Of a stretch of 64,000 bases of DNA, positions 10,067 to 60,872 are shown one piece after another (positions within the stretch are counted from its first letter, which is position 1; each line of letters starts with the position of its first letter). The notes beneath the pieces are model-generated. The model saw only the letters and a list, made by a program, of their open reading frames with translations. It did no database searches and had not been told where the DNA came from. Made by a program: the position numbers and the translations under genes. The DNA is from an uncultured Candidatus Saccharibacteria bacterium (GTDB taxonomy: Bacteria; Patescibacteriota; Minisyncoccia; Phycocordibacterales; UBA2100), in assembly GCA_964512835.1 (NCBI GenBank), contig CAZELA010000002.1, forward strand, positions 28,603-92,602. Reading direction: 5' to 3'.

Positions 10067-11353
10067 GTGGCAGACGGAAAGACCGATATTTTGATACTGG
10101 GGAGCGGGGCGCGAGAGCACGCGCTCGCATGGAAGCTCGCACAGTCTCCCCGCGTGGGGACTATCTACGCTGCACCCGGCAATGCCGGCACAGGTTCATT
10201 TTGTAAGAATGTCGACATTCCGGCGACGGACATCCCGCGCCTTGCGGATTTTGCACATCAGCATTCTATCGGTCTGACCGTCGTCGGGCCGGATGAACCG
10301 CTTGCCCTCGGCATAGTCGATCAGTTCAAACGCACCGGATTGCGTATCTTCGGTCCGACGAAAGCGGCCGCGCAGATCGAAAGCTCAAAGGCGTTCGCGA
10401 AGAAGCTGATGCATGAGGCGAAGATACCGACCGCGGCGTACAGCGTATTCACCGATGCGGTACAGGCACAAGGGTACGTGCAGGCCGGGCCGCTCCCGGT
10501 CGTAATCAAGGCAAGCGGTCTTGCGGCCGGCAAAGGCGTTGTCATTGCGCAGACGCATGAAGAGGCGCGTGCGGCGATTGACGACATCATGGTCAAACGC
10601 ATCTTCGGCGATGCCGGCACGTCGGTCGTCGTCGAGGAATTTCTGGAGGGAAATGAGATATCCGTCCATGTCATGACAGACGGCGTTAATTACGCGATAT
10701 TCCCGAGCTCTCAGGACCACAAGCGCATCGGCGAAGGGGACACCGGCAAGAATACCGGCGGCATGGGGGTCATTGCACCCGTGCCCTGGGTGAATTCAGA
10801 TATGATGCTTGCGATCGAGAAGACAATCATCCAACCGCTCATACGGGCCCTCGGTGATCGAGGCATACCGTACCAGGGGGTGCTGTTCCCCGGCATCATG
10901 ATGACGCCCGCAGGTCCGAAGGTTATAGAACTCAATGCGAGGTTCGGTGACCCGGAGTGCCAGACGTACATGCGTATGCTTAACAGCGACCTTATGGATC
11001 TGATCGACGAATGTGTCGACGGCGGCATCGGGACGCATATACCGCGCTGGGATACTGCGGGAACGGTCGGCGTCGTTCTTGCATCGCAGGGCTATCCGGA
11101 TGATTTCCAGACGGGGTTCAAGATAAGCGGCCTCAAGGAGGCGGGTATGAGCGAGAACGTCGTCGTATTCCATGCCGGAACCGTCGCAAACGACGGATTC
11201 TATACCGCCGGCGGTCGGGTACTCACCGTGACCGCGACGGGGTCACCGATCGCAAAAGCACAGGAGCTCGCCTATCGGGCCGTTGAAAAGATAACGTTCG
11301 AGAATAAGTACTACCGTCGCGATATCGGCCAGAAGTCGATTACCGCATCCTAG
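10067..11353 (+). CDS. purD: Phosphoribosylamine--glycine ligase
   Basis: ILILGSGAREHALAWKL N-terminus and an ATP-grasp core. 428 aa. Confidence 0.9.
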   Translation: MADGKTDILILGSGAREHALAWKLAQSPRVGTIYAAPGNAGTGSFCKNVDIPATDIPRLADFAHQHSIGLTVVGPDEPLALGIVDQFKRTGLRIFGPTKAAAQIESSKAFAKKLMHEAKIPTAAYSVFTDAVQAQGYVQAGPLPVVIKASGLAAGKGVVIAQTHEEARAAIDDIMVKRIFGDAGTSVVVEEFLEGNEISVHVMTDGVNYAIFPSSQDHKRIGEGDTGKNTGGMGVIAPVPWVNSDMMLAIEKTIIQPLIRALGDRGIPYQGVLFPGIMMTPAGPKVIELNARFGDPECQTYMRMLNSDLMDLIDECVDGGIGTHIPRWDTAGTVGVVLASQGYPDDFQTGFKISGLKEAGMSENVVVFHAGTVANDGFYTAGGRVLTVTATGSPIAKAQELAYRAVEKITFENKYYRRDIGQKSITAS

Positions 11354-11433
11354 TGTGCGCGGGATGTGCGTCCGATACACACTCGCACGATTACGAACAA
11401 GAGGGACCTGTCACCGCAAGGTATACTTTTTGT

Positions 11434-27414: not shown

Positions 27415-28635
27415 ATGATCCTTCTCTCGCTTATTTCCTACGTCCTCGTACAGACGCTGGGGTTATTCATCGCATTCGCGGCAGCTGCGGTGCTTTTGTA
27501 TATGATTCTGCGGCGGTTTCATTCTCGAGCTATCACACTTACGTTGTGTGCGGTGTTCATCGGTATATCAATATTCTTTTACGTACCGAACGGTTTACCC
27601 AGCGGCTTTGAGTACGCCGCGTATCGCGCTACGTACGGACCCGCCGGAAAACCGTCCCTCCCATTCTGGAATGTCATCGCTTTCTTCCGGCACTTCAATG
27701 CATTTGAGCGTGTAGCTGATATCGCACACGACCCGAATCAGGTCGGAGAGCCGATCGCGCGGACCGCGACCAGCACCGTGCATGTCGACATTGTGGCAAA
27801 AGAAGTCATCTCTGAACTCGCGCCGGGTGTGTATCAGAATTTTTGGACCTACAACGGCACGGTGCCCGGCCCGATGGTGCGTGTGCGCGTAGGTGACACC
27901 GTCGTTGTAACGCTGAAGAACGATGAGTCGAGCCTCCACCCGCACACCATAGATTTCCACGCGGTCATCGGACCCGGAGGGGGAGCGGCGGTGCTGCTTG
28001 CGAATCCGGGCGAGACGAAAACGCTCACGTTCACCGCACTGCATCCGGGGCTGTTCGTATACCACTGCGCAGCGCAGAATCCTGCGGTGCACATGGCGCA
28101 TGGCCAGTACGGATTGATCCTTGTCGAACCGGAGACACCGTTGCCGCCGGTCGATCACGAGTACTACGTGATGCAGGGTGAGTTCTACACCACCGGAACG
28201 CTCGGCCAAAAAGGACTGCAAATATTCGATTCAAAAGCGATGCTCGACGGTATTCCGAATTACGTTGTGTTCAACGGCAGAACCGGCGCACTCGCCAAGA
28301 GTCTCAATGCGAAGTCAGGCGAAACCGTGCGCTTCTACGTGGGTAACGGCGGAGTAAATCTGATCTCGTCGTTCCACATCATCGGGACCGTGTTCGATCG
28401 CGTGTGGCAGGAAGGCTCGATCACAAGTCCGCCCGTCACCAACGTGCAAACAACACTCGTTCCGGCAGGTGGTTCAACAGTGGTTGACCTGACGCTGCGG
28501 GTACCGGGGAATTTTGTCCTCGTTGATCACGCGCTCGCGCGCGTAGACAAAGGTGCGTGGGGCGTGCTGCACGTCACCGGCGATCCTGAGCCCGGAGTAT
28601 TCCAGGGCCAAGCGCAGGAGATGAAAGGACACTAG
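27415..28635 (+). CDS. nirK: Copper-containing nitrite reductase (NirK, two-domain multicopper oxidase) with an N-terminal membrane anchor
   Basis: Two N-terminal transmembrane helices. Type 1 and type 2 copper-ligand motifs HTIDFHAV...GGG, LHPGLFVYHCA, HMAHGQYGLILVEP. Confidence 0.8.
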   Translation: MILLSLISYVLVQTLGLFIAFAAAAVLLYMILRRFHSRAITLTLCAVFIGISIFFYVPNGLPSGFEYAAYRATYGPAGKPSLPFWNVIAFFRHFNAFERVADIAHDPNQVGEPIARTATSTVHVDIVAKEVISELAPGVYQNFWTYNGTVPGPMVRVRVGDTVVVTLKNDESSLHPHTIDFHAVIGPGGGAAVLLANPGETKTLTFTALHPGLFVYHCAAQNPAVHMAHGQYGLILVEPETPLPPVDHEYYVMQGEFYTTGTLGQKGLQIFDSKAMLDGIPNYVVFNGRTGALAKSLNAKSGETVRFYVGNGGVNLISSFHIIGTVFDRVWQEGSITSPPVTNVQTTLVPAGGSTVVDLTLRVPGNFVLVDHALARVDKGAWGVLHVTGDPEPGVFQGQAQEMKGH

Positions 28636-29157: not shown

Positions 29158-29197
29158 AGCCCCGAAGCGATAGCTTCGGGGCTGACTATTTTTTGTG
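29158..29197. terminator. Bidirectional terminator shared by the small membrane gene and ssrA
   Basis: gccccgaagcgatagcttcggggc followed by tgactatttttt. Confidence 0.6.
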
Positions 29198-29585
29198 GAG
29201 GTGCGGGGAATTGAACCCCGGTCCAGAAAATGATTCACAGTCGTATCTACACGGCGTAGGGCATTCGATGTGTTTGAGTGCCGCGCGTTAAGAATGCACA
29301 AGATCGCGCAACACCGGACTCTCTTTCTTTAGGTCTGTGGTCGGAGTGAACCAAAGACCGGATCTGATGTTTATGACGTTCGGTAGCGCGCTATCAGATA
29401 CGCAACGCGCGAACGGTCGCCTGGCTTACGCGAGGACGAAGCCGAGATCCTTCATCTGAATCGGTGAAAGAGTCCCCCCTGCAGTTTTGTTTGCAGTTAG
29501 AATTTGGAACTTTTTAGGAAGTGTCCCACTTCCGCCATGCACAAAAGTAAACTGAATTTCCTGTCGAAGCCGATCACCCCCCACC
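29194..29585 (-). ncRNA. ssrA: tmRNA (SsrA)
   Basis: The reverse complement begins GGGGGGTGATCGGCTTCGACAGG and ends GGACCGGGGTTCAATTCCCCGCACCTCCACA, a tRNA-like 3' end with no encoded CCA. The internal tag reading frame ends ...QMKDLGFVLA-TAA. Adjacent to smpB. Confidence 0.8.
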
Positions 29586-38994: not shown

Positions 38995-39068
38995 CCGCCC
39001 TTAGCTCAGTTGGTTAGAGCATCGAGCTTATACCTCGAGGGTCCTTGGTTCGAGTCCAAGAGGGCGGA
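38995..39068 (+). tRNA. tRNA-Ile with anticodon UAU, no encoded CCA
   Basis: Cloverleaf by eye. Acceptor CCGCCCT/AGGGCGG, D-arm GCTCAGTTGGTTAGAGC, anticodon loop CTTATAC, T-arm CTTGGTTCGAGTCCAAG. Confidence 0.65.
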
Positions 39069-39106
39069 CATAAAATTGTTCCAATTTTCTGTCCGCCCTC
39101 TTGGAC
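39054..39106. repeat. Perfect 17-bp inverted repeat (extended hairpin) that includes the tRNA-Ile T-stem and acceptor 3' strand
   Basis: gtccaagagggcggaca ... tgtccgccctcttggac separated by a 19-nt loop that is itself palindromic (aaaattg..caatttt). Confidence 0.7.
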
Positions 39107-40688: not shown

Positions 40689-40735
40689 TGTGGATTCCCG
40701 GATTTCCTTCGCGTGGGCCGTGCGACAATGAGTCC

Positions 40736-41848
40736 ATGAAATTCGGCGTCCGCGTCATTATCGCGTCGATACTCCTTGCGCCGGTGTTCGCGAGTGCGCA
40801 GTCGACGAGCGACCTCACGTCTCAGGCAGAAACGCTTTTGAAACAGATACAACAGCTCCAGGCGCAGCTTGGCGGCGGTAGTGCAACGGGCGGAGTGGCC
40901 GGTGCGTGTTATAGCGGCGGTCCGCTCAAGCCGGGTGCAAGCGGTGCGTCCGTATCCGCATTGCAACAATTTCTCGCAGCAGATCCCTCGGTGTATCCCG
41001 AGGCAAAAGTGACCGGCTACTATGGCGCACTCACACAAAAGGCCGTGCAGCGCTTTCAGGTAAAGAACGACATCGTTACATCCGGAACTCCGTCAACCAC
41101 CGGCTACGGGTCTGTCGGGCCGCGTACCGTTGCGGTCATGGCGGCAGCCTGCGGGGGAGCGTCCGACTCATCGGGGGATCCCGTCGTCGGCGGATTCATT
41201 AAAGTGTCACCCGTCGAAGGAAGCGCCCCGCTTACGGTGAATGTGGAGGTGACGATCAATACCGTCAAATCATGCCTGCCCGCTACGTACTCGCTCTCGT
41301 GGGGAGATAATTCACTCCCGTTCACCATCTCGGTACCGGCCGGCAAGTGCGATGTTGTCGCACAAACGTACACGCATCTCTACACGCTCGGAGGTGAATA
41401 CAACGTCACGCTCTCCTCGGGTCAGCATCAAACGACTTCAAAGGTTACCGTTTCGGGTAACGGATCGATCATGACCTCGGGCACGATGGACACGAATTTT
41501 GCGGGCGGTAGTGCGTCCACAGGGGGATCGACGACAGGAGGATCGTCTACGGGCGGTTCGTCCACCGGCGGACAGGTTGTCTCGGGCGCACTCGCTATTT
41601 CAATGAGCAGTAACTCTTTCTCGCCCGGCAACATAACGGTTACGAGCGGTACGCGGGTTACCTGGACTAATACCGACTCGATGCCGCACACCGTGACCGC
41701 AGACAACGGCAGCTATAACAGCGGGGCAATGTCTCCGGGACAGACGTATGCCCTCACGTTCACGGCAAAGGGCGAATACACCTATTATTGTGCGATCCAC
41801 GGTGCAAAAGGCGGTATCGGCATGTCCGGCAAAATTACCGTTCAGTAA
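40736..41848 (+). CDS. Secreted protein with an N-terminal peptidoglycan-binding (PG_binding_1-like) domain and a C-terminal type-1 copper cupredoxin (plastocyanin/azurin-like) domain
   Basis: Signal peptide MKFGVRVIIASILLAPVFASA. PG-binding region LKPGASGASVSALQQFLAAD...GYYGALTQKAVQRFQ. C-terminal copper ligands MPHTV ... YYCAIHGAKGGIGM. Confidence 0.65.
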   Translation: MKFGVRVIIASILLAPVFASAQSTSDLTSQAETLLKQIQQLQAQLGGGSATGGVAGACYSGGPLKPGASGASVSALQQFLAADPSVYPEAKVTGYYGALTQKAVQRFQVKNDIVTSGTPSTTGYGSVGPRTVAVMAAACGGASDSSGDPVVGGFIKVSPVEGSAPLTVNVEVTINTVKSCLPATYSLSWGDNSLPFTISVPAGKCDVVAQTYTHLYTLGGEYNVTLSSGQHQTTSKVTVSGNGSIMTSGTMDTNFAGGSASTGGSTTGGSSTGGSSTGGQVVSGALAISMSSNSFSPGNITVTSGTRVTWTNTDSMPHTVTADNGSYNSGAMSPGQTYALTFTAKGEYTYYCAIHGAKGGIGMSGKITVQ

Positions 41849-41956
41849 AACGTCTTCGTGAAGGGCGCTGTGCTATCCCCATCGACGAAATGGGTGTTTC
41901 AAGTCGCCCGTGCGACGATGAACGTATATTTATTCGAATCAGGAAGCTTTTTATCT

Positions 41957-44900
41957 ATGCGAAATCTCTATAAGACCATTGCAGTAATCGCGCTGCTCCT
42001 CTCTCCGACTGTTGTAACCGCACAAACGGTCGACGTGAGCGCACTACTTGCGCAGATCAAAGCATTGCAGGCGCAGATCGCGACGGCCGCCGGCGGGAGC
42101 ACGAACGCACCTGCAACCACGCCGTCGCAGGGAAGCGGCGGAAATTGCGTCCAGCTTGATACGAATCTCCAAAAGGGTGATTCGGGTGACGACGTGAAAG
42201 ATCTGCAGAACTTCCTCATTGCAGAAGGTCTTCTTGATTCGAACGCGACCGGGTTCTTCGGTACGCTCTCCGAAACAGCCGTCAAAGAATGGCAAGGCTC
42301 GCACGGCATCACGCCGCTCGGCATCGTTGGTCCCGCGACCCGTGCTGCGATGGCAAACTGCGGCGGCATATCGAACTCATCCTCAGGGCCGACCATCGTC
42401 TCGAATCAGTGCCCGGTCATTCAAAAGCCTGCTAACTGCGAAAACGCAGTATCGGTCCAGCTCAACGGGTGTACCGTCGGCTGGCAGTGTTCCGTCGCCC
42501 AGCTTCCTGTCGAAACATTCTCCGCAACACCGACAACCGGTCCTGTTCCGCTTGTGGTCCGCTTTTCCGGCGTCGTGACCAGTGCGGATGCCGGCTTCTG
42601 CAAGGGCAACTTCTGCGCTGCGACGCTCGTGTTCGGAGACGGTACGACCGGCGCGGTGCCGCTGCCGAATACCGAGGGCGCGAGTGTGACCTACCAGGTC
42701 AATCACACCTATCAGACAGGCGGAAACTACGTTGCTAACTTGTATCAGGGTGCCGCAGGCAGCGGTGCGCCTCTTGTCGGTAACGGCATTACGATCACGC
42801 CGATCGCGAAACCGGTCGTCGTGCCCACAGGGCCTGCGATCTCGGTCACACCGAATTTCGGCAATGCGCCGCTTCCGGTCACAATCAATGTCACAGGCGT
42901 CACGTCTGCACTTAATTTGTCCGTCGAATTCGGAGACGGCACATTCTCGAGTGTTCAACCGATGGGAAGTAGCTTCGGTGTGACGCACACGTACACCGGC
43001 TCGGGATCGTTCACTGCAAAACTCCGCCGCACGAACGGAACGGGTGATACCTGCGTAAGTGCGCAGTGCCCGATTCTCTCGTCGGCTGCGGTCTCGGTGA
43101 CCGGCGGTCAGGCTGCGTCGGCATCGCTCGTCGCAAATCCGGCCATCGGTCTTGCGCCGCTTCCGGTCACGTTCTTCCTCAACGGCGCGAGCGCATCGTA
43201 TCCCGGGGGTGTCATTCTTGATTTTGGAGACGGCACGACCGAGATGGTCTGCTTGGCGAATGCGTTGTGCGCACAAAAAACGACGACGCACACCTATGCG
43301 ACGGCAGGCACGTTTAACGTGCAGCTTGTTGCGCAAAGCGCAGGCGGTACAACCATCCTGAAAACGGCAACAGTTACGGCGAGCTCGCAGCAGGCGACAG
43401 CGCTTACGGTGTCACCTGCGTCCGGCCCTGCGCCGCTCGATGTAACCTTCACGGCGCATGGCGGTAACCAGCTCTACGTGAACGGCGTCATTCTCAAATA
43501 TGGTGACGGCACGAGCGAAACATTCTGTAACCCGAATGAGCTGTGCGGACAAAAGACAAAGACACACAAGTACACGGACGGCTCTCAGTTCAGTGCGCAG
43601 CTCATCGGCCTGAACGCCGGCTCCGCAAGTACGACGATCGGCACCGCGTCGGTAAACGTGACAGGCGGTCCGTCGAAGATCAAGGTAACCGGCCCGACGG
43701 GTGTCATTCGCAAAGGGGAGTCCGCTTCGATTTCGTGGCAGATCCTGGGTACGAAGCCGAACTCCGGCACGATCTCATTCGATCTCTACACACAGGCGGG
43801 TACCCGCGTCGGAACGATTCTCGCAATCACCAACTACTCGAGCGGTAGCGCAACATGGAAAGTCCCGAGTTCGGCAGACAAGAACTGCTCCGCAACACAG
43901 CCGAACGGTCTGTGCGGTGTGCTCTTGCAGCCGGGCATGTATCGCATCACTGCGAGTGCGTCGAATATGTCGACGAATCCCGAGATCTCCTCTGAGGCGA
44001 CCTTCGAGATCAAGGACGAGATCGTGCAGCCGGGCGGATTCACCATCTCGATCACGCCGTCTTCCGGTGAGCCAGGTAAGCCGATGTCGATTAAGTACCG
44101 CGTCGCGAACCCGCCGGCGAATTCCGGTGTAGCGCTCTGGATGGTACGACCCGACGGAAGCAACGCAGCGCTCATTTCGGGCCGACTCGAGGCGGATAAA
44201 GAACAGAGCACATTCCCATGGGAAGCGGGCGCAACCCAAAACTGCGTCGCCGCGCTCTTCAATCCGAATATCGTGTGCAATCAGTCGCTTGCGCCGATCG
44301 CCACGGGCACCTTCCACATCCTGGGTAAGGTGTATGCACCGTTTGACGGAAAGTACATCGATGACTCTGCGGTGACCATTCACGCGGTCGCAACAAGTAC
44401 TGCGTTCACGATCAAAACCCCCGGAACCGGTTCATCCTGTGTCGTTCTGACATCCAACCTTGGCCCGGGCGACACCGATGCAACGACCGGAGGCGATGTG
44501 AGCGTTCTGCAGAAGTTCCTTGCCGAAGACAGCGAGATCTATCCGGAGGGCATCGTGAATGGTGTATACGGTAATGCGACGCGCCGCGCGGTTGAAAGAC
44601 TCCAGGCATCGAAGGGTATCGTGTCGTCGGGTTCCCCCGAGACGAACGGATACGGTGCGGTCGGTCCGTCCACGCGCGCTGCGATTGCTGCAAGCTGCAC
44701 ATCGAATGCGTCGTATCTTTTTACGGCAACGCCGCTCACCGGCCGTCAGCCGCTTCAGGTAACATTCAGCGCCAAGATACCGACAACTGCAGATACGTAC
44801 TACAACGTCGACTTCGGTGACGGCACGAGCGGTCCGCTTGATCAGACGGTCGGATCCAACAAGACCGCGAAACACACGTACACAACGACCGGCACCTACA

Positions 44901-46315
44901 TCGCGCGCCTCTTGGTGCAGCGTGTCGTGTGCAGCTCCGAGACGAACTGTGTTTCGGATCCGGCGATCAACGGCGGAACAGTGACGGTGAAGGTAACGAA
45001 CATCAATACGCCTCCTCCGCAGTCATGTGCAGATATTACACATACGCTCGGCAGCGAAGATAAGGACGCGACTACCGGCGGTGATGTATCGCGACTGCAG
45101 CAGTTCCTGGCCGCGAACCCCGCGTTCTATCCTGAGGGATTGGTGACGGGCTTCTTCGGCACAGCGACATCAAAAGCGGTCGGACGATACCAGGCAGCCA
45201 ACGGCATTAGCCAGACAGGCACTGTCGGTCCGGTCACGCTTGCCGCAATGCAGTGTAAGAAGACACCTACGAACGACGGTCCGCTTGTTGCCACGCCGTC
45301 AGACGGTACGGCACCACTCTCCGTCCGCTTCACCACCAATAAGGCCGTAGCTACCGGAAGCTACCGCATCAACTTCGGCGACGGTCAGTCACAGTGGCTT
45401 ACCGCATCATCCGTAACGCATATCTATCCGGCAGCCGGTTCGTACACTGCAGAATTGGTGCAGTCGATCGGTAACTGCTTCGGTCTGCCGCAGGATGCGC
45501 TCGAAATCTGCGAGATCGGGTATGCGACGGTGATCGCAACAAAGACCATTACCGTGGCGCAGCAGGCAACACTGTCCGTCTATGTGGCACCCGCAAGCCT
45601 GGCCAACGGTGCAAATCTGGCAGTCACATGGTCTACGACGAATGCGCCGGCAAATTCCAAAGTCCGTCTCGAGGTGTACCGTGATGGTGCGACCGAGGCG
45701 ACAAGCAATAACGACCAGGGTATCGCGGCAGACGCATCCGCGCTCGGCGTGAACGGTACGTACAACTGGACGACACCGTCTGCAACCCGACCGATCGTTG
45801 CCGACGCGGGTCACGGAGGATTTGCGCTCTCACCGGGTACCTACCACATTACTGCGCGTCTCTACACGGGAGACACATGCTGGGGCTACTGTGCGACGGT
45901 GCCGACACGCACGGTCAATGCGATTGCAAAATCGACGAGCTTCACGGTCACTCAGGGAACCGGAGGCACCGGGAGTACCGGTGGCGGAGCGGTCGCGGGA
46001 CAGGTGAAGTGTGACAACAATACCGAGGCGTGGGACGAAAAGATTGTGCTTACATTCCAGAATGCTGCAACTGCGGAGTACAAGTTCCCGATCGGGAATC
46101 CGCACCAGACCATCCAGGCAGACTTCCCGGCGGCCCCGATTTCGGGAACAACCTACCACGGCGTCGCGAACTTCCTCGACTGGCAGCCGAACACGCAGCG
46201 CATCGCAGGTCAGACATCGAAAAGTCTGACCATCCAGTCGCAAAATACTGCGACCGGATTGATGGCAGGGTATCTCCAGTACAACGACTTCACGTGTGTT
46301 GTGACCTGGAACTAA
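41957..46315 (+). CDS. Giant (1453 aa) secreted cell-surface protein with three peptidoglycan-binding domains and at least six PKD-like repeats
   Basis: Signal peptide MRNLYKTIAVIALLLSPTVVTAQT. Its N-terminal module is homologous to the preceding gene. PKD signature (V/L/I)xFGDGT occurs six times. Three PG-binding-like segments (LQNFLIAEGLL, LQKFLAEDSEIYPEG, LQQFLAANPAFYPEG). Confidence 0.65.
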   Translation: MRNLYKTIAVIALLLSPTVVTAQTVDVSALLAQIKALQAQIATAAGGSTNAPATTPSQGSGGNCVQLDTNLQKGDSGDDVKDLQNFLIAEGLLDSNATGFFGTLSETAVKEWQGSHGITPLGIVGPATRAAMANCGGISNSSSGPTIVSNQCPVIQKPANCENAVSVQLNGCTVGWQCSVAQLPVETFSATPTTGPVPLVVRFSGVVTSADAGFCKGNFCAATLVFGDGTTGAVPLPNTEGASVTYQVNHTYQTGGNYVANLYQGAAGSGAPLVGNGITITPIAKPVVVPTGPAISVTPNFGNAPLPVTINVTGVTSALNLSVEFGDGTFSSVQPMGSSFGVTHTYTGSGSFTAKLRRTNGTGDTCVSAQCPILSSAAVSVTGGQAASASLVANPAIGLAPLPVTFFLNGASASYPGGVILDFGDGTTEMVCLANALCAQKTTTHTYATAGTFNVQLVAQSAGGTTILKTATVTASSQQATALTVSPASGPAPLDVTFTAHGGNQLYVNGVILKYGDGTSETFCNPNELCGQKTKTHKYTDGSQFSAQLIGLNAGSASTTIGTASVNVTGGPSKIKVTGPTGVIRKGESASISWQILGTKPNSGTISFDLYTQAGTRVGTILAITNYSSGSATWKVPSSADKNCSATQPNGLCGVLLQPGMYRITASASNMSTNPEISSEATFEIKDEIVQPGGFTISITPSSGEPGKPMSIKYRVANPPANSGVALWMVRPDGSNAALISGRLEADKEQSTFPWEAGATQNCVAALFNPNIVCNQSLAPIATGTFHILGKVYAPFDGKYIDDSAVTIHAVATSTAFTIKTPGTGSSCVVLTSNLGPGDTDATTGGDVSVLQKFLAEDSEIYPEGIVNGVYGNATRRAVERLQASKGIVSSGSPETNGYGAVGPSTRAAIAASCTSNASYLFTATPLTGRQPLQVTFSAKIPTTADTYYNVDFGDGTSGPLDQTVGSNKTAKHTYTTTGTYIARLLVQRVVCSSETNCVSDPAINGGTVTVKVTNINTPPPQSCADITHTLGSEDKDATTGGDVSRLQQFLAANPAFYPEGLVTGFFGTATSKAVGRYQAANGISQTGTVGPVTLAAMQCKKTPTNDGPLVATPSDGTAPLSVRFTTNKAVATGSYRINFGDGQSQWLTASSVTHIYPAAGSYTAELVQSIGNCFGLPQDALEICEIGYATVIATKTITVAQQATLSVYVAPASLANGANLAVTWSTTNAPANSKVRLEVYRDGATEATSNNDQGIAADASALGVNGTYNWTTPSATRPIVADAGHGGFALSPGTYHITARLYTGDTCWGYCATVPTRTVNAIAKSTSFTVTQGTGGTGSTGGGAVAGQVKCDNNTEAWDEKIVLTFQNAATAEYKFPIGNPHQTIQADFPAAPISGTTYHGVANFLDWQPNTQRIAGQTSKSLTIQSQNTATGLMAGYLQYNDFTCVVTWN

Positions 46316-50486: not shown

Positions 50487-51407
50487 ATGTGGCAATTGCG
50501 AGTGATAAACTTGAACAAAATGAAACCGGCCCCATTCGTTGCTTCAGTAGTGCTCCTCGTTGCCGGGGTCGTCATGTACCTACTCACGCGCGGCGCCGAT
50601 ATCCCTGTCTTACATCCGTCGGGTCCGATAGCCCTCGCGGAGTATCGCGTGATCCTTGTTACATTCCTCCTTTCCGCGCTCATCATCGTGCCCGTTTTCT
50701 TTTTGCTGTTCTTTTTTTCGTGGCGATATCGGGCCCAAGGTCCGGATACACAGAAACATCATCATCCGACCTGGGATCATGAGAACGCAGCCGTCGAATT
50801 TCTCTGGTGGCTTATACCGGCAGGGATCATCGGCGTCCTGTCGGTCGTCGCATGGCAGAGTTCGCATGCGCTTGATCCATATGTGCGTATACCGGGGGAA
50901 CGCACAGTCGAGGTGCAGGTCGTGGCTCTGCAGTGGAAGTGGTTGTTCATATATCCCGAACTCGGTCTCGCATCGGTCAATGAGCTTGTTATTCCGGTAG
51001 GAACGCCGGTTCATTTTTCGCTCACCGGGGATGCGCCGATCAATTCTTTTTGGATACCCAGTCTCGGCGGACAGATCATGGTCATGCAGGGTATGCAGAC
51101 GCAGCTGAACCTGCTTGCTTCAGAGGCGGGCACGTTCGAGGGGTGGTCGGGTAATCTCTCCGGCAGGGGATTTTCAAAGATGATGTTCAAGGTGCGAGCG
51201 CTTCCGACGGATCAATACGAATCCTGGGTTGAGCGGGCGCAGCACGACACGACCACTCCGCTGAACGCGGAAAACTACGTGTCGCTTTCCGCGCCGACTG
51301 AGGGACATTCCGTTACGTATTATTATCCGGTGGATCCTGACTTGTATACTTCGATCCATACCAAATACATGAGCGCGCCGGTCGCTGAGCATAGTCATTC
51401 GATATGA
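50487..51407 (+). CDS. cyoA: Quinol oxidase subunit II (CyoA-like; the CuA ligand Cys residues are absent)
   Basis: Signal or transmembrane N-terminus. The region ELVIPVGTPVHFSLTGDAPINSFWIPSLGGQIMVMQGMQTQLNL resembles the E. coli CyoA core. No CxExC CuA motif. Start may be the Met at 50520. Confidence 0.75.
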   Translation: MWQLRVINLNKMKPAPFVASVVLLVAGVVMYLLTRGADIPVLHPSGPIALAEYRVILVTFLLSALIIVPVFFLLFFFSWRYRAQGPDTQKHHHPTWDHENAAVEFLWWLIPAGIIGVLSVVAWQSSHALDPYVRIPGERTVEVQVVALQWKWLFIYPELGLASVNELVIPVGTPVHFSLTGDAPINSFWIPSLGGQIMVMQGMQTQLNLLASEAGTFEGWSGNLSGRGFSKMMFKVRALPTDQYESWVERAQHDTTTPLNAENYVSLSAPTEGHSVTYYYPVDPDLYTSIHTKYMSAPVAEHSHSI

Positions 51408-53371
51408 GCCTGCAGTCCATTCTCTTCGGAAAGCTTTCTCTCGACGTGTTCCCGCACGATATTGTCGCGATCGGCGGGGTCGTATTCATGCTCACGTGTT
51501 CGCTCATCGTTCTCGCGCTGATATCCCGTGGTCACCTGTGGGCATATCTCTGGAAGGAATGGCTCACATCGCTCGATGCAAAGAAGATCGGCATGATGTA
51601 CATCGCAGTGTCCCTTGTCATGTTGGTGCGAGGGCTTGCCGACGTACTGCTTATGCGTACGCAGCAGGCGCTCTCCGTCGGCGCGTCCAACGGCATACTC
51701 GACCCGTCGCATTTCCAGCAGGTATTCACGGCGCACGGCACGATCATGATCTTCTTCGTGGCGATGGGTGTGATGTTCGGTCTCATAAACCTCATCGTGC
51801 CGCTCCAGATCGGCGCCCGTGACGTCGCGTTTCCGTTCCTGAACTCCGTCAGCTTCTGGCTATTCGCGTTCGGGGCACTCCTGGTGAATGTGTCGCTTGT
51901 CCTCGGCGATTTTTCCACCGCGGGCTGGCTTGCATATCCGCCGCTGTCCGGGATTGAGTTTAGTCCGAACTCCGGCGTCGACTACTGGATATGGAGCCTT
52001 CAGATAAGCGGATTGGGTAGTCTGCTCTCAGGTGTCAATTTCATCACAACAATCGTCACAAAGCGCGCGACCGGTATGACGTACATGCGGCTGCCTATGT
52101 TTGTATGGACGGTCTTGGGCTCAATGGTTCTTGTTGTGGTCGTGTTTCCGATTCTCACGGTCACGCTTTCGCTCCTGAGTCTCGATCGCACACTGGGAAT
52201 GCACTTTTTCACTGCGGAGCTTGGCGGCAACATGATGATGTATGTGAATCTGATATGGGCGTGGGGACATCCCGAGGTGTACATTTTGATCCTGCCTGCG
52301 TTCGGAATCTTCTCGGAAATCGTGCCGGTGTTCTCCGGCAAAAAACTCGCCGGATACCGTTCGATGGTGTTTTCTGTGATCGCGATCGGATTTTTGTCGT
52401 TCCTCGTCTGGCTACATCACTTTTTCACCATGGGTGCGGGTGCGAACGTTAATGCATTCTTCGGGATCATGACTGCGGTTATTGCAGTGCCGACCGGGGT
52501 AAAAATATTCAACTGGATCTTCACGATGTATCGCGGCCGCATTCGGCTTGTGAATGCGATGCAATGGTTCATGGGATTCACGGTGCTTTTCACGATCGGG
52601 GGAGTGACGGGTGTTGTGCTGTCACAGCCGCCTGCTGATTTTCAGTTGCACAACACGCTGTTCCTCGTCGCACACTTTCACAACATGATCGTCAGTGGTG
52701 TGTTGTTCGGATACTTTGCGGGGATCACGTTCTGGTTCCCGAAATTCTTCGGTTTCAGACTCAACGAGCGTATCGGCTCGTGGGCCATCTGGTCGTGGAT
52801 CGTTGGGTTCGTGCTTGCGTTCATGCCGCTCTACATTCTCGGGTTCATGGGCGCGACACGTCGCCTCGACCATTACGATGCCTCGCTCGGTTGGCAGGGA
52901 TTGTTCATTGTGGCGGGTGTGGGTGCGCTCATTATTGCGCTCGGATTCGTATTGCAGCTCGTGCAGCTGTGGGTGAGCGTGCGTGACCGCCGCACGACGC
53001 GTGATACAACAGGTGATCCGTGGGATGGCCGGTCGCTCGAGTGGAGCACTGTCTCTCCGCCGCCCGTGTACAACTTTGCGGTGCTGCCGGTTGTTCATGC
53101 GCGTGATCAGTTTTGGGTAACCAAAGAAGGGGGTGTGCGGCAGGAGCAGCACTACACCGATATCATCATGCCCAAGAACTCCGCACTCGGTATCGGGATC
53201 GCTGCCTGTGCGTTCCTGTTCGGTTTCGGCGTGGTCTGGCACATCGTGTGGATGATCTCGCTCGGCGTCCTCGCCGGTATCGCACTGTTTACGCATCGCA
53301 TGTACCTCGAAGAGAGCGATACGGAATATGTCATCCCCGCAGAAACAGTGCGTCGCATGGAAACACTATGA
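51404..53371 (+). CDS. cyoB: Heme-copper quinol oxidase subunit I
   Basis: WAWGHPEVYILILPAFGIFSEIV and conserved His ligands. 655 aa, overlaps cyoA by 4 bp. Confidence 0.9.
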   Translation: MSLQSILFGKLSLDVFPHDIVAIGGVVFMLTCSLIVLALISRGHLWAYLWKEWLTSLDAKKIGMMYIAVSLVMLVRGLADVLLMRTQQALSVGASNGILDPSHFQQVFTAHGTIMIFFVAMGVMFGLINLIVPLQIGARDVAFPFLNSVSFWLFAFGALLVNVSLVLGDFSTAGWLAYPPLSGIEFSPNSGVDYWIWSLQISGLGSLLSGVNFITTIVTKRATGMTYMRLPMFVWTVLGSMVLVVVVFPILTVTLSLLSLDRTLGMHFFTAELGGNMMMYVNLIWAWGHPEVYILILPAFGIFSEIVPVFSGKKLAGYRSMVFSVIAIGFLSFLVWLHHFFTMGAGANVNAFFGIMTAVIAVPTGVKIFNWIFTMYRGRIRLVNAMQWFMGFTVLFTIGGVTGVVLSQPPADFQLHNTLFLVAHFHNMIVSGVLFGYFAGITFWFPKFFGFRLNERIGSWAIWSWIVGFVLAFMPLYILGFMGATRRLDHYDASLGWQGLFIVAGVGALIIALGFVLQLVQLWVSVRDRRTTRDTTGDPWDGRSLEWSTVSPPPVYNFAVLPVVHARDQFWVTKEGGVRQEQHYTDIIMPKNSALGIGIAACAFLFGFGVVWHIVWMISLGVLAGIALFTHRMYLEESDTEYVIPAETVRRMETL

Positions 53372-53952
53372 GTACGACACCGGTGCACACGGACGGACAC
53401 GAGGATCGTACGAGTTTGTACGGATTCTGGATATACCTGATGACGGATTTCATGCTGTTTGCAGCACTATTTTCCGTATTCATTGTGCTGCGGGGCAACA
53501 TTTTTGCATCCGGTCCTGGTGTGTTCTTTGATCTGCGGTCAGTGCTAGCTGAAACGCTCATACTCCTCACGAGTTCGTTCACATGCGGTCTGTTCTTATT
53601 GAGTGCTCGGGCAGGGCACGACCGTGCGGTCCTTACATGGATGTACATCACGGTTCTTCTCGGCGCGGCGTTCTTGTGTATCGAGATCGCCGAGTTCCGC
53701 GACCTCATCAATGCGGGCATGGGTCCGCAGTCGAGCGGGTTTTTCTCCGCGTTCTTTACGTTGGTCGGGACCCACGGTCTGCATATTCTCGCCGGTCTCA
53801 TTTGGATGGTGTCGCTCGCGGCAGCGATCGTACAGCGCGGACTCACGCCATCGAACATGCGTAAGCTTGTTCTGTTGAGTATGTTCTGGCACTTCCTTGA
53901 TATCGTCTGGATATTCATTTTCACTATCGTGTATCTCATCGCGATCGTATGA
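53368..53952 (+). CDS. cyoC: Quinol oxidase subunit III
   Basis: Start MSTTPVHTDGHEDRTSLYGFWIYLMTDFMLFAALF. Five transmembrane helices. ATGA overlap with cyoB. Confidence 0.8.
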   Translation: MSTTPVHTDGHEDRTSLYGFWIYLMTDFMLFAALFSVFIVLRGNIFASGPGVFFDLRSVLAETLILLTSSFTCGLFLLSARAGHDRAVLTWMYITVLLGAAFLCIEIAEFRDLINAGMGPQSSGFFSAFFTLVGTHGLHILAGLIWMVSLAAAIVQRGLTPSNMRKLVLLSMFWHFLDIVWIFIFTIVYLIAIV

Positions 53953-54341
53953 CAAACCACAAAGACTATTTCGGAGAGGTGGGAGTATGGCACAAGGGTG
54001 CGCGGCATCTTGAGCGTACCTATGTGCTCGGATTTCTGTTTTCGCTGATCCTTACGCTTACCGCGTACACCGTCAGCGTGTACCACATCGTCCCGAAGAC
54101 CGTACTCATTCCGATGCTGCTTGTTCTCGCCTGTCTGCAGTTCATGACCCAAGTGCTCGGGTTTCTCCATGTGAGCGGCGCTCCGGCATCACGGGATCGG
54201 TTGATAGCGCTTCTATACTGCACGGTGCTCGCGCTCGTTCTCGTTGTGGGCTCCATGTGGATCATGATGAATCTGCAGTCACGCATGATGACCGACGCCG
54301 GCACGCAGGAACGCTACATGATGAAAGAGCGGGGTATATAA
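53949..54341 (+). CDS. cyoD: Quinol oxidase subunit IV
   Basis: 130 aa, three transmembrane segments. Position in the operon. Confidence 0.65.
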   Translation: MTNHKDYFGEVGVWHKGARHLERTYVLGFLFSLILTLTAYTVSVYHIVPKTVLIPMLLVLACLQFMTQVLGFLHVSGAPASRDRLIALLYCTVLALVLVVGSMWIMMNLQSRMMTDAGTQERYMMKERGI

Positions 54342-54343
54342 CT

Positions 54344-55192
54344 ATGCTCCGCGACTACTACCGGCTCGCGAAACCGGGGATTGTATACGGGAACCTTCTG
54401 ACCGTTGTTGCAGGATTTCTCTTTGCGTCGCACGCTGCACCGCACCCGATTCTGCTTTCTGCGCTCGTGGTCGGCATGGCCCTCGTCATCGGAGGTTCGT
54501 GTGTACTCAATAATGTTTTTGACCGCGACATCGATGCGCACATGAGCCGGACGAAACTGCGTGCAACCGTGACCGGCACGATTACTGTCACGAGATCTCT
54601 CGCGTACGGCATCGTGCTCATGGTTCTCGGTCTCGTGATCCTCGTGCTGTATACGAATATGCTTACAACCGCTGTTGCGGCCGCCGGTGTGCTTGCGTAT
54701 GTCGGTGTCTATACGCCGCTTAAACGTGTGACCCGAATACATACTCTGATAGGAAGTATTGCAGGGGCGGTTCCGATACTTGCGGGCTACGCCGCATGCG
54801 CGAACGAAATAGGTGCGACCGGCATGCTGCTGTTTCTCATCATGATGCTCTGGCAGATGCCGCATTTTTACGCGATCGCGATATACCGCGCCTCCGACTA
54901 CGCGGCCGCCGGTGTGCCGACGCTGCTCTCAGAGGCAGGAATCAGCGCAACAAAGACCGCAGTACTCGTCTACATTGCGTCGTTCGGTCTGGCACAGGCG
55001 TCCCTATTCGTGATCGGCGCGACCGGGTATGTGTACTTTGTCGTAACCTCGGCGTTTGCCATATCGTGGTTTGTTCGGGCACTTCGCGCATCCGCTGACG
55101 ACGTGCAGTGGGCGAGGGGACTGTTCGGATTTTCGCTCCGCGTATTGATCGCGCTCTCTGCGGCGCTCGCGTTCTCGTCGCTTCTTCCGTGA
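54344..55192 (+). CDS. cyoE: Protoheme IX farnesyltransferase (heme O synthase)
   Basis: MLRDYYRLAKPGIVYGNLLTVVAGFLFAS... UbiA-family motif NNVFDRDIDAHMSRTKLR. Confidence 0.85.
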   Translation: MLRDYYRLAKPGIVYGNLLTVVAGFLFASHAAPHPILLSALVVGMALVIGGSCVLNNVFDRDIDAHMSRTKLRATVTGTITVTRSLAYGIVLMVLGLVILVLYTNMLTTAVAAAGVLAYVGVYTPLKRVTRIHTLIGSIAGAVPILAGYAACANEIGATGMLLFLIMMLWQMPHFYAIAIYRASDYAAAGVPTLLSEAGISATKTAVLVYIASFGLAQASLFVIGATGYVYFVVTSAFAISWFVRALRASADDVQWARGLFGFSLRVLIALSAALAFSSLLP

Positions 55193-58046: not shown

Positions 58047-59189
58047 ATGGCCTTTTCTTTAGGCGGTTTTCTCAAGAACCTTACTCCGAGCGCGGGTGAA
58101 GGAAGCGTGCTGGGTATCGATATCGGTGCCTCGTCGGCAAAAGTGGTGCAACTCCGCATATCGCGCGGCATGGCGGTGCTGGAAACATACGGTGAAATTG
58201 CGCTCGGTCCCTATGCGCAGCAGCCGATCGGCAAAGTGGTGCGGCTTCCTCCTGAAAAGATCGCTGAAGCGTTGACCGACCTCATGAAGGAGGCGAATGT
58301 GACCGCAAAAACCGCCGGCCTCTCGGTACCGTTCTCGTCGAGTCTTGTTTCAGTTATCGATCTGCCGAAAGTCGATGCCGAATCTCTGAAGCGCATCATT
58401 CCGATCGAGGCGCGTAAGTACATCCCGGTACCGGTCTCCGAAGTTTCGCTCGATTGGTTCGTGCTGCCACCTGACCCCGGACAGGACAGTGCGTTCGATC
58501 AGCTACAGGAAAAGTCCGGTCTGCGAAAGCAGGGACAGGAGGTTTTGCTCGTAGCGATCACGAATTCGATTTTGAACGATTCGCGCGTGGTCATGGAGAC
58601 GGCAGGCGTGAATGCGTCATTCTATGAGATCGAGATATTCAGTTCGATCCGCAGCTCGTCAGGCCACGGTATCGCGCCGATACTCGTGGTAGACCTCGGT
58701 GCTGCAACAACAAAGATGTATATCGTCGAGCGCGGGGTTGTGCGCATGACACACTCGCTCTCGCTCGGCGGTCAGCATATGACCGAGCAGCTCGGGCGAA
58801 CGCTGGGGTGGGAATTTGAAAAATCAGAGCGTATCAAACGCGAACGCGGCCTCATCGATTCGAGTGTGTACTCGATGAGTGAGAACGACCGCATCAAGGA
58901 AGCGTTGTTATCAACACTGTCCCGCGTCTTTTCCGAAGTTAATCGGGTACTATTAAGTTACGGGCAGCGCTACAACAAGAATGTGGCGAGCGTCATTTTA
59001 ACCGGTGGCGGCGCTTCGCTTCCCGGAATTTCCGATATTGCAAAGTCTTCACTGAATGCGCAGGTGAGTATTGCCGACCCGTTCGCGCGCACGGAGGCAC
59101 CGGCCTTCCTCTCCAAGGTGTTGAAGGAGATCGGTCCCGGTTTTTCGGTCTCTGTCGGACTCGCGCTCCGCACGCTCAAGGGCTCATAA
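58047..59189 (+). CDS. pilM: Type IV pilus assembly protein PilM (actin-like ATPase fold)
   Basis: LGIDIGASSAKVVQL N-terminus. 380 aa. A TATAAT -10 box lies 7 bp upstream. Confidence 0.8.
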   Translation: MAFSLGGFLKNLTPSAGEGSVLGIDIGASSAKVVQLRISRGMAVLETYGEIALGPYAQQPIGKVVRLPPEKIAEALTDLMKEANVTAKTAGLSVPFSSSLVSVIDLPKVDAESLKRIIPIEARKYIPVPVSEVSLDWFVLPPDPGQDSAFDQLQEKSGLRKQGQEVLLVAITNSILNDSRVVMETAGVNASFYEIEIFSSIRSSSGHGIAPILVVDLGAATTKMYIVERGVVRMTHSLSLGGQHMTEQLGRTLGWEFEKSERIKRERGLIDSSVYSMSENDRIKEALLSTLSRVFSEVNRVLLSYGQRYNKNVASVILTGGGASLPGISDIAKSSLNAQVSIADPFARTEAPAFLSKVLKEIGPGFSVSVGLALRTLKGS

Positions 59190-59192
59190 CGT

Positions 59193-59909
59193 ATGGATTC
59201 ACCTAATCAATCATCGTTCATTCCTCAGGACGCGGCGTCGTTGTCCGGCTCATCTTCACGCGTGCGTCAGCAGGGCGGTTTGTCGGATCTTATTCTATTG
59301 CTGACGATCGTGATGTTCGTAGCTTCGATAGCGCTCGCAGGGTCCGTGTTTTTGTATGAAGAATACCTGCGCACAAGCGCCGCGAACAAGGTGGATCAGC
59401 TTCAGCGCGCAAAGGATGCATTCGAGCCGTCGCTCATTCACACGCTGACGCGACTCGACGACCGTATGCATGTGGCAGACCAACTGCTTGCGGCACACGT
59501 CGCGCCGACGGCGTTCTTCCAGATCCTGCAACAGGCGTCGCTCCAGACGATCGAATTCAAATCACTCGATTTTGATGCGCAGGATCCGCAGCGCATCACC
59601 ATTAAAATGACCGGGCTCGCGCAGAGTGTGAATTCGATCGCGCTCCAGGCGGACTTGTTCTCGAAAAACGGCACGATAACCAACCCGATCTTCTCGGATA
59701 TCAACCGACAGTTCGACGGCGTGCACTTCAACCTGACAGCGCTCGTGAATCCGACCTCGCTCAACTTCGTGCGTCTCGTAAACGGGCTCAACGATGCTGA
59801 GCGTCCGCAAACTGACCCGTCCGCTGCGCAGCAGCAACAGGTGCCGCAGGAACCGGACCCGTTCGGAGCGGGCGCTCCGCCACAGGGACAGCCGGCACCG
59901 AACCAATAA
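59193..59909 (+). CDS. pilN: Type IV pilus assembly protein PilN-like
   Basis: Single N-terminal transmembrane segment, coiled region, Gln/Pro-rich tail. Operon position. Confidence 0.6.
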   Translation: MDSPNQSSFIPQDAASLSGSSSRVRQQGGLSDLILLLTIVMFVASIALAGSVFLYEEYLRTSAANKVDQLQRAKDAFEPSLIHTLTRLDDRMHVADQLLAAHVAPTAFFQILQQASLQTIEFKSLDFDAQDPQRITIKMTGLAQSVNSIALQADLFSKNGTITNPIFSDINRQFDGVHFNLTALVNPTSLNFVRLVNGLNDAERPQTDPSAAQQQQVPQEPDPFGAGAPPQGQPAPNQ

Positions 59910-59911
59910 AT

Positions 59912-60481
59912 ATGGCTAAAACGATCATTTCATTCGTAGGAATCATTGCCGCCTTCGGTATATTCTTCTTTTATACAAAGCCGACCTATGATTCCGCGCA
60001 GGGGGAGCGTGCAAAGATCGCCGAGTACGACGCCGCACTCGTGAAGGCAAACGAGCTCCAGGAACGCAAACAAGCACTCCTGAAAAAGTACAACGACTTC
60101 TCTCCGGAAGATAAAGACCGACTTCAGAAGTTGCTTCCGGATCACGTAGACAACGTGCGCCTCATTCTGGATCTCGACAATATCGCTTCGCGTCGCGGCA
60201 TGGCCATGCAGAACGTCGTCGTTTCGACGCCGGGCGCAGGTCAGACGGCGCAGACTGCGGTCGGTACCATCAGCTCTTCAAAGCAGAAGTACGACGTGCT
60301 TACGACGAAGTTCTCCACCACGGGCACCTATACACAGTTCCAGCAGCTGATAACCGATCTGGAAACCTCGCTTCGTATCGTCGATATTTCAACGCTCAAG
60401 GTCTCGAAGAACGATCTGTACTCGAACGGTGAACCGCTGTTCTCCTACGAGGTGAGCTTACGCACGTACTGGCTGAAATAA
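59912..60481 (+). CDS. pilO: Type IV pilus assembly protein PilO-like
   Basis: Single N-terminal transmembrane segment followed by a coiled-coil. Operon position. Confidence 0.55.
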   Translation: MAKTIISFVGIIAAFGIFFFYTKPTYDSAQGERAKIAEYDAALVKANELQERKQALLKKYNDFSPEDKDRLQKLLPDHVDNVRLILDLDNIASRRGMAMQNVVVSTPGAGQTAQTAVGTISSSKQKYDVLTTKFSTTGTYTQFQQLITDLETSLRIVDISTLKVSKNDLYSNGEPLFSYEVSLRTYWLK

Positions 60482-60483
60482 TT

Positions 60484-60867
60484 ATGCAGTGGATCAAAAA
60501 GAACATGCTATTGATAGGGATACTCGTCATCGTCATCGTCGGCGGTGTGTGGTACGGCATGTCGGGCGGTGGGGTACAGGAGGGGCCGTTGCTCACCACA
60601 GACGTTGTGAATGACAGCGGTTCACCGACTGAAGACACTGTCGATCGCGACCTGGTGGAAACGCTACTCACGCTCCGCGCAATCACGCTCTCGGGGACGA
60701 TATTCAACGACCCGGCATTCAAGGCACTGCAGGATTTTGGTACCACCATCGTCCCGGAGCCCGTCGGTCGCTCAAATCCGTTCGCTCCGGTCGGTAACGC
60801 TCAACAGGGAAGAGATAGCAACATCCAACAAACCCAACCTCAGACACAGGGCGGCCCCCGACGCTAA
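60484..60867 (+). CDS. Pilus-assembly-associated membrane protein (PilP-like?)
   Basis: N-terminal transmembrane helix, 127 aa. Position between pilO and pilB. Confidence 0.35.
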   Translation: MQWIKKNMLLIGILVIVIVGGVWYGMSGGGVQEGPLLTTDVVNDSGSPTEDTVDRDLVETLLTLRAITLSGTIFNDPAFKALQDFGTTIVPEPVGRSNPFAPVGNAQQGRDSNIQQTQPQTQGGPRR

Positions 60868-60872
60868 CGCGT

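Follow-up and report, generated by a model that had tools for sequence, protein, structure and literature searches.

Cupredoxin and peptidoglycan-binding domains on one predicted surface protein of a putative Kaiserbacteria-like Patescibacterium

Pseudoazurin and azurin are the classical electron donors of the copper nitrite reductase NirK. In the candidate phyla radiation (CPR), a putative cupredoxin was found in every nirK-bearing bin and drawn as a periplasmic shuttle (Danczak 2017; PMC5581439), and a later survey (Adv Sci 2025; PMC12931201), in which nirK was reported in ~140 of 4645 Patescibacteria genomes, let a plastocyanin ('pcy') with a 'single cupredoxin domain' feed NirK in OLB19 and C7867-001. 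These Parcubacteria proteins share the phylum and the proposed role of the 370-residue cupredoxin protein described here, which is encoded in a 64,000-nucleotide stretch of contig CAZELA010000002.1 (assembly GCA_964512835.1; the whole stretch is called the window below); they are set apart from it by their descriptions, in which no peptidoglycan-binding (PGB) or PKD domain is mentioned.

The window protein joins a C-terminal type-1 copper (Cu) domain, by way of a PKD-like domain and a long linker, to a PG_binding_1 domain behind a Sec-type signal peptide, and on balance we think it probable, with modest confidence, that it acts as a wall-retained one-electron carrier for which NirK is a possible but non-exclusive acceptor. 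NirK is probably one of its partners and not the reason for its existence, because the cupredoxin gene occupies a conserved chromosomal backbone also where no NirK or oxidase gene lies nearby. An earlier note on this DNA, made by a model from the letters alone, had pictured such a wall-tethered cupredoxin, encoded 12 kb from a nirK gene, and knew of no description of the fusion. Literature searches on cupredoxins or plastocyanins with a peptidoglycan-binding domain, and on those of Parcubacteria, Patescibacteria or CPR, turned up no account of it; nevertheless, the architecture is abundant in databases, where automatic names already show both parts (e.g., JGI 'plastocyanin/peptidoglycan hydrolase-like protein with peptidoglycan-binding domain'), the JGI annotation of the window protein itself being 'plastocyanin'. 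The design is therefore unremarked rather than hidden, common among the ultra-small Patescibacteria and apparently undescribed in papers. Electron flow from a cupredoxin to NirK had already been proposed in print for Parcubacteria (PMC5581439; PMC12931201).

Copper site, wall anchor and spacer

The C-terminal domain belongs to Pfam Copper-bind (PF00127; residues 293–370, E 6.4e-13, 49.4 bits versus a cutoff of 21.2) and also matches Cupredoxin_1 (E 6e-8, 33.1 bits versus 27). The NCBIfam models of plastocyanin (TIGR02656, 52 versus 87.85), amicyanin (TIGR02657, 40.8 versus 110.2) and halocyanin (TIGR03102, 34.6 versus 93.8) score well below their cutoffs, so that the domain can be assigned to none of these named subfamilies. 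In a phmmer search of the PDB, the C-terminal cupredoxin domain of the Nitrosopumilus maritimus multicopper oxidase (9cck, E 1.6e-12) and the Synechococcus plastocyanin (1bxu, E 7e-12) were matched, and the ligands of both align with His318, Cys352, His355 and Met363 of the window protein. An AlphaFold2 (AF2) model built from a 20-sequence alignment (mean pLDDT 68, domains 70–90) comprises three folded domains with low-confidence stretches between them, and Foldseek against the PDB groups its C-terminal domain with plastocyanins and amicyanins (1bxu: target-normalised TM 0.82, rmsd 2.0 Å over 93 columns, 36% identity), in agreement with a predicted Greek-key beta-sandwich. None of the four ligands is substituted in any of 20 orthologs (50–76% identity), indicating that one Cu could be bound through them. 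The C-terminal cupredoxin with a type-1 ligand set named in the earlier note thus holds, in profile score, ligand conservation and predicted plastocyanin-like fold, whereas the ligand spacing is C-x2-H-x7-M, one residue shorter than the C-x2-H-x8-M given there.

At the other end of the protein, the signal peptide is the sole hydrophobic segment; it has neither a lipobox Cys nor a twin-Arg motif, is conserved in orthologs and would probably be cleaved after its ASA. When the protein was scanned for other anchors, no lipobox, C-terminal transmembrane (TM) segment or LPXTG was found, leaving the peptidoglycan-binding domain as the only recognisable means of retention. This domain belongs to Pfam PG_binding_1 (PF01471; residues 69–119, E 1.5e-6, 28.8 bits versus a gathering score of 23), is modelled as a three-helix bundle (AF2 helices 71–81, 98–110 and 129–137, pLDDT ~90) and matches the peptidoglycan-binding domain of the Streptomyces Zn carboxypeptidase over residues 58–119 (PDB 1lbu, E 0.004). 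Both of the families that the earlier note expected in a profile search, Copper-bind and PG_binding_1, therefore pass their Pfam thresholds. Patescibacteria are regarded as monoderm, and the monoderm, wall-held setting assumed in the note agrees with the named homologs, which come from Patescibacteria, and with the lack of an alternative anchor in the protein.

The note had read the whole N-terminal half as one PG_binding_1-like domain behind a signal peptide. Both of these are present on the same chain, but the half is not one domain: it also holds a conserved amphipathic helix at residues 25–45, which likewise begins the giant protein encoded next door and the homologs that have PGB and PKD domains only, and it includes a beta-sandwich at residues 150–242, which had been missed, and a linker at 243–282. 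The beta-sandwich scores below threshold in Pfam (PKD_4: residues 164–229, 17.6 bits versus 27, E 0.004) and does not reach membership of the PKD families PF18911 and PF00801. We label it 'PKD-like', without counting it as a PKD member, because it is predicted to be all-beta and a profile hidden Markov model (HMM) of the region matches the PKD repeats of the giant neighbour (E 3e-4 to 5e-3). The linker contains 12 Gly, 9 Ser and 8 Thr among its 40 residues and varies in length among orthologs. The three folded domains are about equally conserved, with mean ortholog identities of 67–71% (71% for PG_binding_1) against 42% for the linker, and four cysteines (Cys58, Cys139, Cys180 and Cys205) are invariant or nearly so in the 20 orthologs.

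Homologs, domain orders and a conserved chromosomal slot

A search of 5.8 billion proteins yielded 370 relatives, and domain-order classes were taken from the best 120 of them, sorted with domain HMMs built from the 20-ortholog alignment. Named homologs come from Candidatus Kaiserbacteria, Parcubacteria, Paceibacterota or the 'Patescibacteria group', and judged by these the source organism is a Kaiserbacteria-like Patescibacterium. A cupredoxin and a peptidoglycan-binding domain share one chain in 102 of the best 120 homologs, in at least six domain orders. Most frequent is cupredoxin-PGB-PKD(2–4), found in 74, followed by PGB-PKD-cupredoxin as in the window (20), PGB-PKD-cupredoxin-PKD (4), cupredoxin-PGB-PKD-cupredoxin-PKD (3) and PGB-PKD-PKD-cupredoxin (1), while 17 homologs have PGB-PKD without a cupredoxin. 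Among 110 cupredoxin domains, His-Cys-His-Met is kept in 87, either with the long loop (54) or with a short, amicyanin-like C-x2-H-x2-M loop (33); an axial Gln replaces Met in nine, and Cys or His is lost in about 12. This co-occurrence in several orders, together with the mostly kept ligands, points to selection on the combination of domains and on Cu binding, and argues for a recurrent pairing of copper site and anchor that is mostly under selection.

In the degenerate copies, about a tenth of the domains, Asp or Ser stands in place of the Cu-binding Cys, and/or Tyr, Asp or Asn in place of a His, and the cupredoxin-PGB-PKD architecture is kept (P0035, P0067, P0069, P0077, P0096, P0112, P0119 and the first domains of P0026 and P0032). 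The cupredoxin domain is doubled in three proteins, two of which, P0026 and P0032, have lost the copper ligands of the first domain.

Nine further loci were examined, six with the domain order of the window (L007, L009, L010, L092, L093 and L094) and three with an N-terminal cupredoxin, namely L096, L097 and L095, the last of which belongs to the complete Kaiserbacteria genome CP066682.1 (859 kb). Wherever enough flanking sequence exists, the cupredoxin gene lies in the same slot of a backbone that runs from SmpB and FtsH through several genes to malic enzyme, the cupredoxin protein and usually a second PGB/PKD protein, and further on to RecG on the opposite strand and a small holin_4_2-like gene. 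The proteins with an N-terminal cupredoxin occupy this slot as well, and are therefore positional orthologs of the window protein in which the domain order was rearranged in place.

In the clade with the window's domain order, the directly downstream partner is always a giant protein of ~1,350–1,470 aa (L007, L009, L010, L092, L093 and L094), a fast-evolving surface protein that may be an adhesin. Nothing in this protein supports a redox role: it contains no CxxCH, no C..H motifs and no heme or Cu motifs. Across these loci, identities are 61–74% for the cupredoxin protein and 55–68% for the giant protein, compared with 86–92% for malic enzyme and 81–88% for RecG; on these values, the two surface genes diverge far more quickly than the genes around them.

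The start of the cupredoxin gene was placed at an ATG (Table 1). A longer reading from a GTG at 40589 was rejected because it overlaps the NUDIX gene and because the alignment with all 19 orthologs begins at the signal peptide encoded from the ATG. The identical 370-aa protein is also encoded on JGI metagenome contigs and on one 377-kb NCBI contig. Just upstream of the ATG lies an extended -10-like motif, GTGCGACAAT, a candidate promoter for a leaderless mRNA. RTGCGACAAT followed by 6–7 nt and ATG precedes the cupredoxin gene in the window (40720–40738), L007 (~9986), L009 (upstream of 10001) and L010, four genomes whose proteins are only ~62–65% identical, and in many homologs over-extended open reading frames (ORFs) read 'CDN..M', that is, the motif translated. 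In L010, the motif positions are 10048 and 11200. A variant, GTGCGACGAT, lies at 41910–41919, ~38 nt 5' of the giant neighbour gene, and motifs of this type are not general to the genes of the window. RTGCGACAAT thus looks like an extended -10 box for leaderless mRNA, or a regulatory site common to the surface-gene family. A generic sigma-70 and terminator scan gave no match at the start of the cupredoxin gene and no terminator between the cupredoxin and giant genes.

NirK, other partners and competing explanations

In the wall-retained carrier that we favour, the Sec pathway would export the protein and the signal peptide would then be removed. The PG_binding_1 three-helix bundle, judged from its family, would hold peptidoglycan non-covalently, the PKD-like Ig domain would act as a rigid spacer, and the linker, ~40 residues long, modelled as disordered and with a contour length of ~14 nm, would let the cupredoxin swing between partners. 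The cupredoxin would load one Cu outside the cell and alternate between Cu(I) and Cu(II), as its invariant ligands and fold suggest, and a membrane-anchored, outward-facing NirK would be a plausible acceptor in genomes that have it. The NirK of the window has two N-terminal TM helices (residues 1–35 and 37–62) with a positively charged RRFHSR loop between them, from which its catalytic domain is predicted to face outward. Its core is 50–55% identical to enzymes of the AniA/RpNiR type; being composed of TM helices and a two-domain core, with the cupredoxin in a separate gene, it is not a cupredoxin-fused NirK of the HdNIR/9CCK type.

That the protein is instead the dedicated donor of the NirK whose gene lies 12 kb upstream, with wall-tethering having evolved for this enzyme, seems unlikely to us. 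Cupredoxins of the pseudoazurin/azurin type are classical for NirK, among the solved relatives closest in sequence are cupredoxin domains that form part of NirK-like enzymes (9cck, 6hbe), and the two genes lie together on one contig both in the window and in L009. The cupredoxin reported for every nirK-bearing CPR bin (PMC5581439) points in the same direction. The earlier note had likewise drawn on a nirK gene 12 kb away. That gene does lie 12.1 kb upstream, but the genes between are housekeeping ones (tmRNA, FtsH, malic enzyme and others), nirK and the cupredoxin gene form no operon, and the distance carries no functional weight. Considering distinct loci with enough upstream sequence, NirK accompanies the cupredoxin gene in two of eight, the window and L009 alone, and cyoAB downstream is likewise confined to these two. 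Neither NirK nor Cyo was found within 10 kb of the cupredoxin gene in L007, L010, L095, L096 and L097, nor NirK in the 10-kb flanks in L094. Of the nine further loci, seven keep the backbone with neither NirK nor Cyo close by. Conversely, no cupredoxin lies within 10 kb in any of 19 other Patescibacteria NirK loci (species-representative genomes, ortholog-built HMM), a search whose sensitivity was adequate because the same HMM detected the distant NirK-fused cupredoxins of L031 and L075. An ArsR-like regulator is the conserved neighbour of NirK in 14 of these 19 loci, which suggests a dedicated nirK regulator and not a respiratory operon. Moreover, a DUF305 gene in L094 takes the syntenic site at which L009 has NirK, the NirK proteins of the window and L009 are 88% identical but their cupredoxin proteins only 65%, and nirK is carried by merely ~140 of 4645 Patescibacteria metagenome-assembled genomes (PMC12931201). 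At the level of loci, the cupredoxin gene is thus not associated with nirK as a donor gene would be; with housekeeping genes in between, a backbone conserved without NirK and NirK loci without cupredoxin, the linkage is weak.

More doubtful still is a non-redox surface protein, whose cupredoxin would be a structural or adhesive Ig-like module, or a site of copper sequestration or delivery in the maturation of extracytoplasmic cuproenzymes, carried on a generic PGB-PKD scaffold. Such a role would accommodate the module of signal peptide, helix, PGB and PKD domains that occurs without a cupredoxin in 17 of 120 homologs and in the 1452-aa neighbour, the ~12 of 110 cupredoxin domains that have lost Cys or His within the same architecture, and surface genes that diverge faster than their neighbours (55–68% versus 81–92% identity). 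Nevertheless, His-Cys-His-Met is invariant in the 20 orthologs, 96 of the 110 domains keep His-Cys-His with Met or Gln, the cupredoxin domain is conserved as much as the anchor, and copper chaperones whose fold resembles that of cupredoxins bind the metal through different sets of ligands. A host-directed role, in which the peptidoglycan-binding domains grip a host wall and the cupredoxin trades electrons with host or environmental partners, is very improbable. It would suit the largely episymbiotic Patescibacteria (PMC12931201), the pairing with a giant, fast-evolving, adhesin-looking protein with multiple PGB and PKD domains, and the retention of the gene in the core backbone irrespective of NirK; however, the VanY-type carboxypeptidase of the window indicates own wall metabolism, which makes self-binding simpler, and no multihaem or other conduit proteins are encoded near the cupredoxin gene.

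Several observations weigh against the wall-retained one-electron carrier itself. The axial residue of the type-1 Cu (T1Cu) site of NirK is Gln231 (28105–28107, AHGQYG) instead of Met. With Gln in this position, a lower T1 potential is to be expected, and transfer from a Met-ligated cupredoxin could therefore be less favourable; this residue bears on which donor can reduce NirK. The same Gln occurs in the NirK of L009 and L012–L015 and is restricted to the subclade that contains the NirK of the window (identity of 72% or more), whereas 13 of 14 other Patescibacteria NirKs and the solved relatives have an axial Met (xxGMYG), and L026 has Leu. In addition, the ligand loop of the cupredoxin is modelled with moderate confidence (AF2 pLDDT ~67), the domains that lack Cys or His (~12 of 110) imply that the fold can persist without copper, and the PG_binding_1 match is modest, so that its target could be another polymer or the wall of another cell. 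No bc1-type complex or other candidate electron donor is visible in the window.

Going beyond the single locus, PGB-PKD-cupredoxin proteins, whose genes keep their place on the chromosome with or without NirK or an oxidase nearby, might be a core, lineage-wide component of extracytoplasmic electron transfer in Kaiserbacteria-like Patescibacteria. Embedded in the wall, they would carry electrons between the cell and partners outside it, for example redox proteins on the host surface or soluble or mineral oxidants. Taken together as one claim this is quite improbable, but if true, it would amount to an unrecognised wall-based redox interface in organisms regarded as obligate fermenters.

The surroundings of NirK differ between loci. 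After a DUF1653 gene, L009 has NirK (641–1861) and L094 a DUF305/DUF4142 gene (1652–2038), and this site next to tmRNA and smpB marks a variable insertion point. In L017–L028, L030 and L058, all with Met-type NirK, an ArsR/HTH-like ORF of ~120 aa lies 7–48 nt upstream of NirK, and a divergently oriented ATP-cone ribonucleotide reductase adjoins this ORF at the 14 loci. Downstream of the cupredoxin gene, the cyo cluster was considered as an acceptor and dismissed: CyoA (50487–51407) has the COX_ARM motif and is without CuA cysteines, so that the enzyme would be a quinol oxidase that does not accept electrons from a cupredoxin. This cluster is present in L009 and not at the equivalent position of the other related loci, and looks like an accessory insertion.

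The remaining genes of the window (Table 1) include a TraG/VirD4-like coupling-protein homolog and a type IV pilus set, both typical Patescibacteria surface machinery, and a tmRNA with a long predicted tag, ANKTAGGTLSPIQMKDLGFVLA. Its tRNA-Ile has the anticodon TAT; in most bacteria, AUA is read by a lysidine-modified CAT tRNA.

Table 1. Positions of the cupredoxin gene, its parts and other features in the window
Feature	Coordinates	Strand	Description and basis
Coding sequence of the PG-binding/PKD-like/cupredoxin protein	40736–41848	+	370 codons and TAA, stop included
Predicted Sec-type signal peptide	40736–40798	+	aa 1–21, MKFGVRVIIASILLAPVFASA then Q (ASA, then Q); read from sequence
Conserved amphipathic helix	40808–40870	+	aa 25–45, ...LLKQIQQLQAQL; AF2 helix, ortholog conservation
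PG_binding_1 domain	40907–41152	+	aa 58–139, flanked by conserved Cys58 and Cys139
PKD/Ig-like beta-sandwich spacer	41183–41461	+	aa 150–242, conserved Cys180 and Cys205; AF2 all-beta
Disordered Gly/Ser/Thr-rich linker (leash)	41462–41581	+	aa 243–282; pLDDT 27–42
Plastocyanin/amicyanin-like cupredoxin	41582–41845	+	aa 283–370; Pfam, NCBIfam, PDB and Foldseek matches
Type-1 Cu ligand codon, His318	41687–41689	+	sequence
Type-1 Cu ligand codon, Cys352	41789–41791	+	sequence
Type-1 Cu ligand codon, His355	41798–41800	+	sequence
Type-1 Cu ligand codon, Met363	41822–41824	+	sequence
Extended -10-like motif GTGCGACAAT	40720–40729	+	ends 6 nt before the ATG of the cupredoxin gene
Giant secreted protein	41957–46315	+	1452 aa, 3 PG_binding_1 and at least 4 PKD; Pfam; own GTGCGACGAT motif at 41910
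Copper nitrite reductase NirK	27415–28635	+	406 aa; Pfam; PDB 6the, E 1e-96
cyoA-cyoB-cyoC-like cluster and UbiA-family (haem O synthase-like) gene	50487–55192		bo3-type quinol oxidase
VanY-type carboxypeptidase	19665–21134		own wall metabolism
TraG/VirD4-like coupling-protein homolog	11353–14241		962 aa
tmRNA	29193–29581	-	Rfam 128 bits; between NirK and smpB
tRNA-Ile	38995–39069		ARAGORN; Rfam tRNA 69 bits
Type IV pilus set	58047–62570		PilM, PilO, T2SSE-family secretion ATPase (PilB-like)

Comparison with known carriers and wall proteins

Monoderm cells have no outer membrane to keep small soluble carriers, and the respiratory capacity of the Patescibacteria phylum is debated. The probable anchoring, the predicted reach of some nanometres and the NirK-independent conservation of the protein change how the published chain from donor through 'plastocyanin' to NirK would be modelled and which partners would be chosen for it. 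The family is also a natural source, for blue-copper biochemistry, of circular permutations of anchor and cargo and of axial variants (Met, Gln and lost sites).

Compared with plastocyanin (Synechococcus 1BXU) and amicyanin (Paracoccus 1AAC), the window cupredoxin has the same Greek-key fold and the same order of His, Cys, His and Met, but its Gly-rich ligand loop (C-x2-H-x7-M, HGxxGGxGM) is longer than those of plastocyanin (x4) and amicyanin (x2), and it forms the C-terminal part of a multidomain wall protein of 370 aa, whereas they are free 10-kDa carriers. Pseudoazurin and azurin, as type-1 Cu one-electron carriers, are its proposed functional analogues; the sequence similarity to pseudoazurin is weak (E 0.006–0.06), and both are soluble, periplasmic proteins of diderms without anchor domains. 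The best PDB matches are the NirK-type fusions, namely the Nitrosopumilus maritimus multicopper oxidase 9CCK (Foldseek E 1.7e-9 with the cupredoxin domain), the Thermus scotoductus NirK 6HBE and the Hyphomicrobium HdNIR 2DV6. There, too, the cupredoxin is tethered near its acceptor instead of diffusing freely, but by covalent fusion to the enzyme. In the window, by contrast, NirK is a protein of its own with a TM anchor, encoded 12 kb away, and the fusion partner of the cupredoxin is a wall anchor.

Auracyanin, sulfocyanin and Neisseria Laz are membrane-anchored cupredoxins. Halocyanin is held by a lipid anchor, as cited in PMC3387779. These proteins solve the same problem of carrier loss by a lipid or a TM helix, in place of which the window protein has a peptidoglycan-binding domain, an Ig-like spacer and a long linker. 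Its three-helix module is that of PG_binding_1 wall enzymes such as the Streptomyces Zn D-Ala-D-Ala carboxypeptidase (1LBU) and SleB (SleB model, E 2e-4), whose cargo is a peptidoglycan hydrolase, whereas the cargo here is a redox copper domain and a hydrolase domain is absent. The protein is, accordingly, an ordinary member of the cupredoxin and PG_binding_1 families, and its new element is the mode of retention: beside the known solutions of lipid anchor, TM anchor and fusion to an enzyme, a peptidoglycan leash would be the fourth.

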